64,000 nt of DNA from an uncultured delta proteobacterium (lineage in GTDB: Bacteria > Desulfobacterota > Binatia > UBA9968), in contig CAVUVW010000010.1 of NCBI GenBank assembly GCA_963745035.1, positions 32,001 to 96,000 of the forward strand, given 5' to 3'. Below, piece after piece: positions 25,217 through 28,390 of the stretch. Position 1 is the first letter of the stretch. Every line of letters begins with the position of its first letter. Below the pieces are notes generated by a model. The model was not told where the DNA came from. It did no database searches and saw only the letters and a program-made list of their open reading frames with translations. Made by a program: the position numbers and the translations under genes.

Positions 25217-25492
25217 TCACGCTTTGGTGCGAAACCGGCGGGACAAAAACCAGGCGGCGCCGGCCGGCACTCCGAAGACGACGACGTGCACGGCGAGTTC
25301 GGTCAGCACGGAGTAGCCGGCAACGAAGACACCGATGAAGAAATTGACGATGGACGCCGCCAACCAGATCCAAACGAACACGCGGGCGCCGTCCACGGGC
25401 GCCCGCGTCTTGCGCTGATTGAGTTGGGCGGCGACGAAGACGAACAGAGACAGAAGAATAAGGCCGATCACCGTGATTCTAAGCGTGTGCAT
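25217..25492 (-). CDS. small membrane protein
   Basis: 91 aa, three hydrophobic segments. Confidence 0.65.
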   Translation of the reverse strand: MHTLRITVIGLILLSLFVFVAAQLNQRKTRAPVDGARVFVWIWLAASIVNFFIGVFVAGYSVLTELAVHVVVFGVPAGAAWFLSRRFRTKA

Positions 25493-25759
25493 TGTAGCTG
25501 TCCGTTAGCAGGCTGTTGAAAAAGGTCACCTGCTTCGTTGCGTTCGATCGCCTCGCTGCCACATCAGGCAAAAGGCAGTAGGCAACAGGCAACAGGGAAA
25601 CATCCCAGTGGAACTTGTTTTTAAGCCGGTCACTTCGAGAGCGCACAGTTTTGCCTCGAGCCTGTCCTGAGACTTGTATGATGGATGTCGGCTCTGAACC
25701 GGGAGTGCTCTGCTACAATGCCCGAAACGCCAAAGGCATTGTGCAAGGAGGCACTCAGC

Positions 25760-26854
25760 ATGGGACACAAAGCGTTTATACCACAAGAGTACGATGTGTT
25801 TGCGGGCTTGGACGTAGATAAAAGAAGCATCTCGGTGACCTTTAGCAACCATCAGCAAGGATTTGTCCGATCGTTGCACATGCCGTACAGCGTGGAGCAC
25901 TTGCTCAAGCACGTACGCAAGCATTATCCCGATCAGAAGGTTGCGTTTGTCTATGAAGCTGGACCGACGGGGTATGGATTGTATGATGGGCTTTCGGCCC
26001 AGGGGTATAACTGCTTGGTGGCGGCACCTTCGATGATCCCTCGAGCTCCCGGGCAAAGAGTCAAAACCAATCGCCTCGACAGCCGAGGGTTGTCGGAGAG
26101 CTTGCGCGGTGGACAGTTGAAGAGCATTCACGTGCCTTCGCCCATTTATCGAGAGCTTCGCCATCTCACCCAGCTGCGCGACACCTTGGTCAGTGAAGTG
26201 GCGGGGATGAAGCAGCGGATTCAATCGCTGTTGCTGTTTGAGGGGATCGCTTTCCCAGCGGCTCCCGCTGGGAGCCGCTGGTCTTTGAAAGTGAAGAGCC
26301 AACTGAGGAAACTTCAGTGCTCTAAGAGCATGCGCTTTAAACTCGATCAGTTGCTCGACAACGTGGAGTTTTCTGAGAAGCAGGTCGTGAAAGTGACCAA
26401 AGAGATTCGCAAGCTCTGTCAGAACGATCCTGAACTGGCGCAGTGCATGAAGTATATGATGAGCGTTTGTGGCATCGGCTGGATTGTGGCCAGTCAGCTC
26501 CTGGCTCGTATCGGTGATTGGCGGGAACTTAAAAACGTGCGTCAGCTGGCAGGGTTTTTGGGGCTGGTTCCGAGTGAGGACTCTACGGGAGAGAAAACCG
26601 ATCGAGGCTCGATCACCCGCACGGGACATGGCCGCCTGAGGAGTAAACTCATCCAAGCGGCCTGGTCGGCGATTCGCCAAGATGGTGAACTTCGGGAGTT
26701 TTACAGTTCGGTATGCCGCAGACACCCGCGGCATATGGGTCCGCGAGTCGCCATCGTCGCCGTGGCGCGCAAGCTCAGCACCCGGATTGCTGCGGTGTTG
26801 ATGGAACAACGGCCCTATGTGATGAGACAGAAAAAGTTCATTCAGCTCCTTTGA
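25760..26854 (+). CDS. IS110-family DEDD transposase/recombinase
   Basis: AGLDVDK, YEAGPTG, KTNRLD, GLVPSEDSTG, VAVARKL; GGAGG RBS. Confidence 0.95.
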   Translation: MGHKAFIPQEYDVFAGLDVDKRSISVTFSNHQQGFVRSLHMPYSVEHLLKHVRKHYPDQKVAFVYEAGPTGYGLYDGLSAQGYNCLVAAPSMIPRAPGQRVKTNRLDSRGLSESLRGGQLKSIHVPSPIYRELRHLTQLRDTLVSEVAGMKQRIQSLLLFEGIAFPAAPAGSRWSLKVKSQLRKLQCSKSMRFKLDQLLDNVEFSEKQVVKVTKEIRKLCQNDPELAQCMKYMMSVCGIGWIVASQLLARIGDWRELKNVRQLAGFLGLVPSEDSTGEKTDRGSITRTGHGRLRSKLIQAAWSAIRQDGELREFYSSVCRRHPRHMGPRVAIVAVARKLSTRIAAVLMEQRPYVMRQKKFIQLL

Positions 26855-26859
26855 CCCAA

Positions 26860-27080
26860 GAGGAGACATCGCCCCAGGGAACGGCTCGACGACTTTGAGA
26901 ACCGGGAGAAAGAAACTCCTGACGGTTCGATCCTTGAGACAGAGATCCCGGGGCTTTGTGCCTTAGAGAGGGGCGCATTTTAAGTCAGTGTGACGGCCGG
27001 GTGCCGTGCCACGCATAGCAGCAAGTCTCTCTTGGCCGGGAAAGAAGAAGGGATAAACTAAGAGCATTCGCGGTGTAGCG
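26860..27080 (+). ncRNA. putative seekRNA/bridge RNA in the IS right non-coding end
   Basis: CGACTTTG (26890-26897) is the reverse complement of target CAAAGTCG; CATAGCAG and CAAGTCT (27014-27028) match both strands of the donor junction. Confidence 0.7.
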
Positions 27081-27208
27081 ACTTGACATCCACATAGCAG
27101 CAAAGTCGAAGGATCGATTTCTCGCGCGCCTCGCATCTGGAACTTTTGAACAGCCTGGAATCAGAGTTTTTCAACAGTCTGTTAGGGTCTGTCGCACTAG
27201 GCCAACCA

Positions 27209-28390
27209 TCACACGAGCTTCACGGTCAACGGGTTGTACGAGTAGAGCCACGCGTTTCGATCGGCGCCTTCGTCGCGCGCGGCGAACACTTGGCGGAGCT
27301 TCGGCTGGTCGCGCATGTGGAACAAAGTGCGGTTGGCATCCGATCCTTTAACGATGCGCGAGGTGCGCGGGATGCGGTTGCGCTCGTAGAGCTTGAGAGC
27401 CTCGGCAGCGTCGTCCGTCGCTTGCAAGGCGCGGGTAAGGACGGCGGCGTCTTCGATCGCCATACATGCGCCCTGGGCGAGGTAGGGCAAAGTCGCGTGG
27501 ACCGCGTCGCCGAGCAAAGTCGCGCGCCGGGTGCTCCAGCTCGCGATCGGCGGGCGATAGTAGAGCGACCAGCGAAAGCACGAGTCTTTATCGACCCGAT
27601 CGATGACCGTCTGGATGTCGGGATGCCAACCGACGAAATCGGCCTTGAGCCGCTCCCACGGAAACTTGGCGGTCCACGATTCTTCGGAGATCTCTTCGGT
27701 TTCCACCAGCCCGACGAAATTGAGCAAAGCCCCCGCGCGGAGATAATAGCAGACCACGTGCGCTCCGGGCCCCATCCACACCGACATGACTTGACCCATG
27801 AAGTTGTCGGGCAACTGATCGGTGGGAAGCGTCAGCCGCCAGGCGGCATCGCCGGTGTATGCGGCATGGTCCGCGCCTGCGATCTGCGCGCGCACCGCGG
27901 ACTTGACGCCGTCCGCGCCGATCAACAGGTCACCTTTGGCCGCGGAGCCGTCGGCGAAGCGAAGCTCGACCCCGGCCGCGGTTTCTGCGAAGCCGACGAC
28001 CCGGCGGTTGAGGCGCACGACGTTCTTGTCGAAGTCCCGCGCCCTGGCGGCGAGCACATCGTGAAGGTCGGCGCGGTGAAGTTGATTGTACGGCGCGCCG
28101 TTCAGCCTCTCGTGCTCGGCGGCGAGCGGAAACTGGCCGATGACCTCACCGATATCGTGAAGTCGAAAGACATAGGCGCCGGGCCGGACCGAAAGCTTGG
28201 CGATGGTCTCGCCAAGCCCGAGGTGGTTGAGCACGTGCATGGCATTGGCGCTCAGTTGTATGCCGGCGCCGATCTCGCTCAGCTCCGGCGCCTGCTCATA
28301 GATCTCGACCTCGTAGCCCGCCTTCATGAGGCAGGAAGCCGCCGTCAGGCCGCCGATGCCGGCGCCGGCGATCAGAATCTTTTTGACCAT
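27209..28390 (-). CDS. FAD-dependent monooxygenase (salicylate hydroxylase-like)
   Basis: GAGIGG, GADG, LLGDAVH, QGACMAIED. Confidence 0.92.
   Translation of the reverse strand: MVKKILIAGAGIGGLTAASCLMKAGYEVEIYEQAPELSEIGAGIQLSANAMHVLNHLGLGETIAKLSVRPGAYVFRLHDIGEVIGQFPLAAEHERLNGAPYNQLHRADLHDVLAARARDFDKNVVRLNRRVVGFAETAAGVELRFADGSAAKGDLLIGADGVKSAVRAQIAGADHAAYTGDAAWRLTLPTDQLPDNFMGQVMSVWMGPGAHVVCYYLRAGALLNFVGLVETEEISEESWTAKFPWERLKADFVGWHPDIQTVIDRVDKDSCFRWSLYYRPPIASWSTRRATLLGDAVHATLPYLAQGACMAIEDAAVLTRALQATDDAAEALKLYERNRIPRTSRIVKGSDANRTLFHMRDQPKLRQVFAARDEGADRNAWLYSYNPLTVKLV

Follow-up and report, generated by a model that had tools for sequence, protein, structure and literature searches.

An IS110/IS1111-family insertion sequence with candidate RNA guides in a multicopy hairpin repeat of an uncultured Binatia bacterium

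An insertion sequence and its ends

The window analysed here, a stretch of 64,000 nucleotides from an uncultured delta proteobacterium assigned to Binatia, carries on its forward strand, to which all features described below belong unless stated otherwise, an insertion sequence of 1429 bp (25672..27100). We consider it very probable that this is a member of the IS110/IS1111 family with an IS1111-type architecture, in which an RNA from the 3' region would guide a DEDD recombinase into a repeat hairpin. The length counts in the right-hand AG (27099-27100), a duplicate of the AG at 25670-71, and the boundary is ambiguous by this 2-bp core. Outside the element lie the left target half GCCTGTCCTGAG (25660..25671), which is read from the sequence and whose last two bases are the core AG, and the right target half CAAAGTCGAAGG (27101..27112), which is read from the sequence and from the comparison of copies. 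An earlier note on this DNA had named both AG dinucleotides as the core, and both are present in the sequence.

A subterminal inverted repeat, ATGATGGATGTC, starts six bases from the left end (25678..25689). Its counterpart GACATCCACAT, invariant in relatives, starts five bases from the right end (27085..27095) and reads ATG-TGGATGTC as the reverse complement; the two, both of which relatives conserve, match at 11 of 12 positions with one gap around a perfect 8-bp core. It is due to this one-base gap that an inverted-repeat search of the element missed them, and for ISEc45 the same search did not define the ends clearly. On joining of the element's two ends, TTGACA (27083..27088; invariant in 59 sequences) and TATGAT (25677..25682; retained in most relatives) form TTGACA-N17-TATGAT, the spacing being 12 + 5 = 17 bases. 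This arrangement, predicted in the earlier note, can thus be read off the sequence, and the two motifs would serve as the -35 and -10 halves of a promoter at the circle junction. A promoter scan within the element returned nothing useful. The circle joint would read CATAGCAG-ACTTGT and the joint of the empty site CCTGAG-CAAAGTCG.

The transposase gene

The transposase gene (25760..26854) encodes 364 amino acids in the window copy and is preceded, eight bases upstream, by AAGGAGG at 25745-51. It leaves 88 nt of non-coding DNA upstream (25672-25759) and 246 nt downstream, the latter being about 200 nt in the four other copies of the genome. The protein matches the Pfam domains PF01548 (1.9e-14) and PF02371 (1.6e-21), and scores 218 bits against a cut-off of 140 with NF033542 ('IS110 family RNA-guided transposase'), positions 1-343 of the profile being matched. 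Its translation contains GLVPSEDSTG, which corresponds to the GL-P----S/TG motif; in the account of PMC11187229 this motif, given as GL-P----S(T)G, is a trait of the C-terminal domain in the IS1111 group. The closest named transposase that we found is that of ISEc45 (31% identity over 299 residues, E 2e-42). Identity is 23% to IS5075 and 25% to IS4321 (E about 1e-6). Two relatives that have been solved, IS621 and ISCro4, match chiefly in the C-terminal domain, and the match to IS621 is weak (E 2.7e-11). By sequence comparison the transposase is thus distant from the core IS1111 clade. Opposite the gene, the minus strand has an open frame of 447 aa (25526-26869), which in DNA this rich in G+C we regard as fortuitous.

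Copies in the genome and the target repeat

The genome (G000; 7.43 Mb in 28 contigs) holds five copies of 1424-1429 bp with about 100% identity, all with AG on both sides and with identical ends and guides; a family-profile search of this genome found no further IS110-family gene. One copy, L005 (G000:C14:192694-194117), has three single-base deletions in its gene, which the family-profile search recovers in two pieces, and is probably dead or mis-assembled. The left flank is GTCCTGAG in four of the five copies and GTTGAG in L004, so that TGAG ends the flank in all five and CCTGAG in four. The right flanks are CAAAGTCGAAGG twice, followed by CGAAGTCGAAGG, CTAGTCGAAGG and CAAGTCGAAGA. Four of the five copies lie inside a repeat core, CCTGAG/C-N2-3-GTCGAAGG (the slash marking the insertion point here and below), while the site of L004 is merely a look-alike. 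The expectation that the other copies would sit in the same repetitive extragenic palindrome (REP) is therefore borne out for the ends, which are the same in all four, and for the core in three, L004 being the one whose site only resembles it.

The core CTGAGC-N2-4-GTCGAAGG occurs 23 times in the 7.43 Mb, where our own arithmetic gives an expectation of about 0.2, and two looser forms occur 46 and 68 times. These counts agree with the earlier description of the target as REP-like and multicopy, with the qualification that the repeated unit is the core: an unoccupied exact target, GTCCTGAGC-N-AAGTCGAAGG, is found only once in the genome, exact sites being rare. The core matches belong to several repeat families that have only the core in common, and the five copies occupy at least three of these. 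Examples of such core-bearing families, on contigs such as C13, C14 and C16, are gtcatcCTGAGC..GGCGAAGgatctgcttt and ggagtttatcCTGAGC..GTCGAAGggttcgaaatgaca. A hairpin containing tandem G-A pairs can be drawn for the core, which in the form CCTGAGC-N2-4-G(N)CGAAGG also flanks relatives in metagenome-assembled genomes (MAGs) labelled as other phyla. Covariation links the first base past the crossover to the one that precedes TCG (C..G, G..C, T..A), which places the point of entry at the 5' foot of the terminal loop of the hairpin. Just to the left of the insertion, the intergenic segment 25503-25600 is a short repeat with dozens of 80-94% matches in this genome and in genomes of the same genus; hence, the insertion sits in a cluster of different repeats.

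Relatives of the element

A scan of species genomes found five loci whose proteins are 70-93% identical; the MAGs concerned bear the labels Sulfotelmatobacter, Binatia and 'delta proteobacterium', and they contain more copies. A metagenome scan confirmed 334 relatives among 599 pattern matches, and the best 80 of the 334 (75-94% identity) were used. Flanks, ends and three candidate guide segments were taken from 93 loci by anchor motifs, loci at contig ends being incomplete. Hairpins of this kind are also the insertion sites of about 90 relatives, and AG ends each of the left flanks listed. Two of the loci, L006 and L007, from MAGs labelled Candidatus Sulfotelmatobacter and Candidatus Binatia, are about 89-90% identical in DNA to the window element, which suggests that the element moved recently from one distant lineage to another, or else that contigs were wrongly binned. 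Of 40 kin genomes searched, 6 contain the 3' region (5 of the 24 from the same genus and 1 of the 16 others), or 7 of 41 counting G000; this tally takes in G009, a genome flagged as unpublished on which nothing else here depends, and many of the genomes are incomplete, so that a region not found need not be absent. A search of the 40 kin genomes for an orthologous empty site gave none, with only a neighbouring gene matched at 75-77% identity.

The right-flank guide

The segment CGACTTTG at 26890-97 in the 3' non-coding region is the reverse complement of 27101-08, the first eight bases of the right flank; as RNA it is the candidate right-target guide (T guide) CGACUUUG (26890..26897). An 8-nt match of this kind arises in 18 of 2000 mononucleotide shuffles of 26855-27070 when the window is taken by itself. 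The stronger evidence comes from 82 loci with both guide and flank, which reduce to 59 unique pairs with 28 distinct guides. Guide and flank agree on average at 6.46 of 8 positions, against 4.82 for shuffled flanks (standard deviation 0.15, maximum 5.34 in 5000 shuffles), with 14 perfect pairs and 37 having at least seven matches. When each guide type is counted once the mean is 6.27, against 4.59 in shuffles (standard deviation 0.18, maximum 5.26); 11 of the 28 types have a target matching at 8/8 and 20 have one matching at seven or more positions. The mutual information between RNA columns and DNA positions forms a diagonal, 26896/+1, 26895/+2, 26894/+3 and 26893/+4, with each of these pairs of positions complementary in 60-74% of cases.

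The pairing comes in two registers. Guides ending in G-AG, the type found in the window, pair with flank bases 1-8 at targets with a 3-nt loop, the A facing the core G; for guides ending in C-AG the partners are flank bases 1-7 together with the core G, at targets with a 2-nt loop. In a separate set from kin genomes, L130 scores 7/8 by script, its guide having changed from CGAC to CGGC along with a change of the target from GTCG to GCCG, and L127 gives 7/8 by hand count from guide and flank, the script having left this locus unscored since the AGUACC stem escaped its anchor. On this comparative evidence the right-flank guide is firmly supported, and the earlier claim that a 3' segment is the reverse complement of the right target flank holds both as a sequence match and through covariation.

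A probable left-flank guide

The left-target guide (B guide) is predicted to be AUCC-U-UGAG at 26930..26938, in the same sense as GTCC-TGAG with the core AG included and with one bulged base; the segment TCCTTGAG within it is located at 26931-38. On the 3' side of the loop the pattern across loci is NNNN-N-UGAG, in which UGAG equals the flank TGAG at 3.98 of 4 positions. With the bulge, 2.31 of the four variable positions agree with the flank, against 1.99 in shuffles (standard deviation 0.11), and in 78% of loci the base in column 26932 is the one at flank position -6. Pairing with no bulge gives 1.08 of 4, no better than shuffles, and was rejected. The best exact left-flank match in the window, of 6 nt, is reached in 362 of 2000 shuffles of 26855-27070 and is therefore not above chance by itself.

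Two loci at sites that are neither repeats nor palindromes bear on this assignment. In L038 the flanks are ..TTCCGTAG/CGAACGC.. and the guides ACGTTCGC and TCCGCAG. In L108 the left flank is ..GCGATTGAG with the guide GCGAT-T-TGAG, and the right guide CGTTGCGC matches GCGCAACG, which lies behind an apparent 6-base duplication at the right end. The duplication (..CATAGCAG CAGCAG CGCAACG..) stands between the usual end and the guide-matched flank. In both loci the two guides are altered in step with the two flanks, amounting to natural retargeting, as has been shown for ISEc11 and ISXne4 (PMC11187229). We regard the left-flank guide as reasonably supported by these comparisons. The left-flank match proposed in the earlier note is thus retained as the segment 26930-38 with a one-base bulge, its exact match being within chance. 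A second candidate that had been put forward, TCCTGA within the hairpin (26918-23), is dismissed: it forms the 3' strand of the conserved stem P2 and stays constant in relatives while the flanks vary.

A candidate donor segment

Farther downstream, CATAGCAG at 27014-21 repeats the right end, 27093-100, and CAAGTCT at 27022-28 is the reverse complement of 25670-76. The right-end-like segment (27014..27022, with AUAGCAG at 27015-21) has the same sense as the right end and core. In 53 of 58 unique combinations AUAGCAG agrees with the seven bases that close the right end, and these include the joint change in L018 to ATAACAG in both right end and guide; two of the remaining combinations differ as a G-T wobble would permit and three are plain mismatches. 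In 2000 shuffles of 26855-27070, an 8-nt right-end match arises 28 times and a 7-nt left-end match 100 times. In 55 of the 58 combinations (43 C, 9 G, 3 T) the base at 27022 is the one with which the right flank begins, and the mutual information between the two, 0.94, is the strongest signal of the analysis. Since 27022 tracks the first flank base, the segment suits the integrated right junction, or the product after exchange, better than the circle junction. The idea that 27023 reads either the second flank base or base 3 of the left end was discarded, as no consistent rule emerged.

The adjoining candidate left-end guide, CAAGUCU-C (27022..27029), complements the left-junction sequence G + AG + ACTTG and is the weakest part of the scheme. 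AGUCU(C), complementary to G-AG-ACT, is invariant, and in the window the match extends to CAAGUCU. Covariation, including that in L018, thus suggests a role of the right-end segment as a donor guide; the match to both strands of the donor junction that had been noted earlier is present in the sequence, with comparative support for its right-end half and no covariation in the CAAGTCT half.

Predicted fold and contig evidence

A consensus fold predicted by RNAalifold on 59 distinct sequences starts with hairpin P0 (CUCCUUU / AAGAGGAG; 26846..26865), which is nearly invariant in nucleotides even though the longer open reading frame overlaps it. Indeed, all of 26843-26890 is near-invariant in nucleotides although that frame reads through it, which points to a constraint on RNA or DNA. 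The stems predicted to close the target loop have their 5' strands at 26871..26887 (GCCCC 26871-75, GGG 26877-79, CUC 26885-87) and their 3' strands at 26942..26954 (GAG 26942-44, CCC 26947-49, GGGGC 26950-54). Hairpin P2 (GAACC-GGGAG ... CUCCU-GGUUC; 26899..26928) would lie between the two target guides and shows one compensatory pair, C:G to U:A in L038. The two target guides come to lie on opposite sides of one internal loop, and 27014-29 is unpaired between two stems; further hairpins and then CUCUU/AAGAG make up the 3' part. In the single-sequence ensemble the right guide is mostly open, with an unpaired probability of 0.63. A hairpin at 26957-77 followed by TTTT was considered as a terminator and rejected, the T run being lost in relatives. 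A search of Rfam gave a best E of 3.2 in 25400-27400 and nothing at gathering score in the whole window; Rfam 15 may or may not hold a bridge or seek RNA family.

Read evidence was taken from assembled contigs of public runs placed on 25300-27500, in which the ends and strand of an RNA are not resolvable. One contig of run X3 passes from the left flank through 25671 directly into CAAAGTCGAAGGATCG, that is 27101-16, and represents the empty site; a second contig of the same run spans the occupied left junction. The empty form could be either ancestral or the product of precise excision. Further contigs show the same right end beside another flank (..AG/CTTGTCGAAGG), as well as a variant guide.

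A proposed mechanism and its alternatives

We propose that the 3' non-coding region, roughly from 26843 to at least 26955, gives rise to an RNA that works together with the DEDD recombinase and would fold as a stem around one internal loop. The excised circle, its ends joined, would recombine with the target at AG, so that the element comes to lie in the tip of a short hairpin that occurs as a repeat, CCTGAG/C-NNN-GTCGAAGG. The circle junction would make a near-consensus promoter. The second unpaired segment (27014-29) would probably carry the element's own ends, with 27022 reading the first target base in a handshake-like manner. The core of the earlier proposal, an RNA-guided IS1111-type element aimed at a multicopy repeat, is upheld by the architecture, by the covariation of the right guide and by the repeat core.

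Several observations weigh against this scheme. Twenty-two of the 59 right-flank pairs have six matches or fewer, and four copies in genome G022 sit at imperfect sites. For the left guide the bulge model gives little excess, since the observed 2.31 is below the highest value, 2.42, among 5000 shuffles, and the four variable bases of this guide also complement the distal right flank (AAGGNN): among 86 discriminating positions the right flank is matched at 38, the left at 32 and neither at 16. The left guide fits either flank because the repeat is palindromic, and we favour the left-flank reading because L038 and L108 lie at non-palindromic sites. The left-end variant ACCTG is uncompensated in all eight unique combinations that have it, and the left-end half of the donor segment is therefore without comparative support. 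Only one of the 47 predicted pairs shows a compensatory change; the stems being nearly invariant, the fold, P0 included, rests on energy and conservation and not on covariation, and the window RNA is no more stable than its shuffles (z -1.03 and -0.17). In the single-sequence ensemble the left guide is mostly paired with CUCGA 26885-89 (unpaired probability 0.20), so that the earlier expectation of single-stranded guides agrees with the consensus loop for both but with this ensemble only for the right one. We give this pairing light weight, as GAG 26942-44 is an equally conserved alternative partner and the protein may remodel the loop.

On the protein side, Asn104 (26069-26071, in KTNRLDS) aligns with the third acidic residue of the DEDD set, where ISCro4 has KTDAVDA and ISEc45 KNDHRDA. 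It is invariant in six aligned relatives, and the near-identical copies together with the empty-site contig suggest that the Asn104 clade is active nonetheless. The window copy has an extra AG at 26829-30, through which its frame stops 14 codons early. A circle junction was not found among the contigs of X1, X2, X3 and X15, which is uninformative in that contigs drop rare forms. The contigs of RNA library X15 are likewise uninformative: they cover parts of the gene and 26836-80 and none covers 26928-27075, and they may stem from DNA or from other members of the family.

The extra AG raises the question of whether the window copy itself is defective and was moved, if at all, by other copies. 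It alone has these two bases, which are lacking in the contigs of X1 and X2, and in the other four copies the frame continues to a TGA at about 26896-98, giving 378 aa. But the NF033542 profile stops at residue 352 of these 378, so that the insertion costs only a tail outside the conserved protein; the tail varies in length among relatives, whose proteins have 386 to 411 aa, and the guides and ends are the same as in the other copies. A defect is accordingly unlikely in our judgement, and the intact recombinase of the earlier note is kept in so far as the protein is covered by the profile and the guides and ends are identical, though with a C-terminal tail shortened by the 2-bp insertion.

A different alternative is that the RNA, as a narrow seekRNA, guides the choice of target only, with the protein reading the ends through the subterminal repeats and 27014-28 acting as a scaffold or a signal at the DNA level. 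An 82-nt seekRNA sufficed for the movement of ISEc11 (PMC11187229), the donor segments here lie side by side and not across a loop, and the uncompensated ACCTG variant is what such a division of labour would allow. Against it stand the rarity of the 8-nt right-end match in shuffles (28 of 2000), the compensatory change in L018, the unpaired state of the donor segment in the consensus fold and the agreement of 27022 with the first target base in 55 of 58 combinations, unlike a mere scaffold. We hold this alternative to be possible but doubtful. We give far less credence to a third explanation, by which the protein would recognise the shape of the repeat hairpin and the 3' matches would be by-products, either a captured repeat fragment or an echo of palindromy. 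The target is a hairpin, the left guide is indistinguishable from the complement of the distal right flank, and a 2026 preprint on ISPpu10 proposes a requirement for structure besides base pairing (bioRxiv 10.64898/2026.03.19.712850). However, 28 distinct right guides track the variable loop of the hairpin, and in L038 and L108, at sites that are neither repeats nor palindromes, both guides are altered. Moreover, the matches stand in reversed order, on opposite strands and with a hairpin between them, and therefore are not a copy of the repeat; this makes recognition by shape very improbable. Guidance by an RNA with target guides, and probably a donor segment, thus remains our preferred reading.

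Comparison with known systems

The target of ISPa11 is a REP, and Tobes and Pareja are said to have described insertion of such elements into REPs in 2006. The ISPa11 target is listed in Table 1 of a review (PMC13604230), and the Pseudomonas elements ISPpu9 (PMC12288879) and ISPpu10 (bioRxiv 10.64898/2026.03.19.712850) are described as REP-targeting members of the IS110 family. They are like the window element in inserting into repetitive extragenic palindromes with several copies per genome, whereas their hosts, repeats and element sequences are unlike those found here.

By both domains, the short shared core and the lack of a long target duplication, the element belongs to the IS110 family in the wide sense. 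The subterminal repeats, the long downstream non-coding region, the GL-P----S/TG motif and the order of the matches place its predicted architecture in the IS1111 group. For that group, PMC11208160 gives subterminal inverted repeats of 7-17 bp and reports that 93% of the elements have their bridge RNA in the right end. ISEc11, ISPa11, ISKpn4 and ISPst6, as described by Siddiquee et al. 2024 (PMC11187229), are alike in having a DEDD transposase with the GL-P----S/TG motif, and the IS1111 seekRNA elements of that report share the subterminal repeats, the long non-coding region behind the gene and natural retargeting. Their seekRNAs are described there as having the top-strand match 5' of the bottom-strand match, which is also the order in the window, 26890-97 before 26930-38. 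The same report quotes 330-350 aa for the transposases, against 364-378 aa here, and the window element differs from the elements described in it by the one-base bulge of the left match, which is predicted from sequence. For ISEc11, the 82-nt seekRNA was enough for movement in experiments in which the authors altered the donor flanks and not the ends (PMC11187229). ISEc45 is labelled 'IS1111' in the source data of Figure 8b of that paper, whose identity matrix puts it at under 25% to the core IS1111 set; it has Asp where the window clade has Asn104.

With IS621 (Durrant et al. 2024, PMC11208160; Hiraizumi et al. 2024, PMC11208158) the candidate system shares the reading of the left flank via the bottom strand and the right via the top, a core within the bottom-strand guide, guides across an internal loop and a handshake-like position beside the donor segment. 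In IS621, positions beside the guides read the other DNA after exchange and are called handshake guides (PMC11208158); 27022 may parallel these, by analogy only. The differences, as far as these descriptions go, concern layout. The IS621 RNA lies in the left end, while the candidate RNA here lies in the right end; its bridge RNA has two internal loops with the bottom-strand guide 5' and the top-strand guide 3', an order that is reversed in the window's target loop; and its donor guides are split across a loop, whereas the donor segments of the window element are contiguous.

Derivatives without a transposase gene

At L018 (L018:1455-1770; G003:C204:4863-5178) we observed a 316-bp derivative that lacks the transposase gene. 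Of the left end it keeps the outermost 26 bp, which a short linker connects to the entire 3' non-coding region and the right end, with the right end CATAACAG and the guide AATAACAG altered jointly. This copy is complete, and three more (L023, L024 and L025, left parts) are cut by contig ends. The left flanks all differ, and each copy lies behind ..CCTGAG. From its sequence the derivative looks like a non-autonomous element with its own guide RNA.

Implications

The element is a natural example of a mechanism described in 2024, the mechanism itself not being new. What may be of wider interest, although we advance it tentatively, is the clade of soil bacteria as a case of natural reprogramming, with at least 28 right-flank guides that track the variable loop of one hairpin repeat shared by MAGs labelled as different phyla, two registers, a handshake-like position at 27022, and 316-bp derivatives with both ends and the guide RNA at four or more sites in one genome, which would be parasites of the full element. 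RNA-guided IS110/IS1111 recombinases are under development for genome writing, and the RNAs of the IS1111 type are less understood than the IS621 bridge RNA. Within this clade the scaffold stays constant while guides and targets vary together in many natural pairs, which bear on the variable positions and on the number of mismatches tolerated in natural insertions; the pairs also show that nature makes use of a register shifted by one base and of a bulge of one base. In the host genome, the intergenic hairpin repeats are marked as insertion hot spots of what is otherwise an ordinary mobile element.

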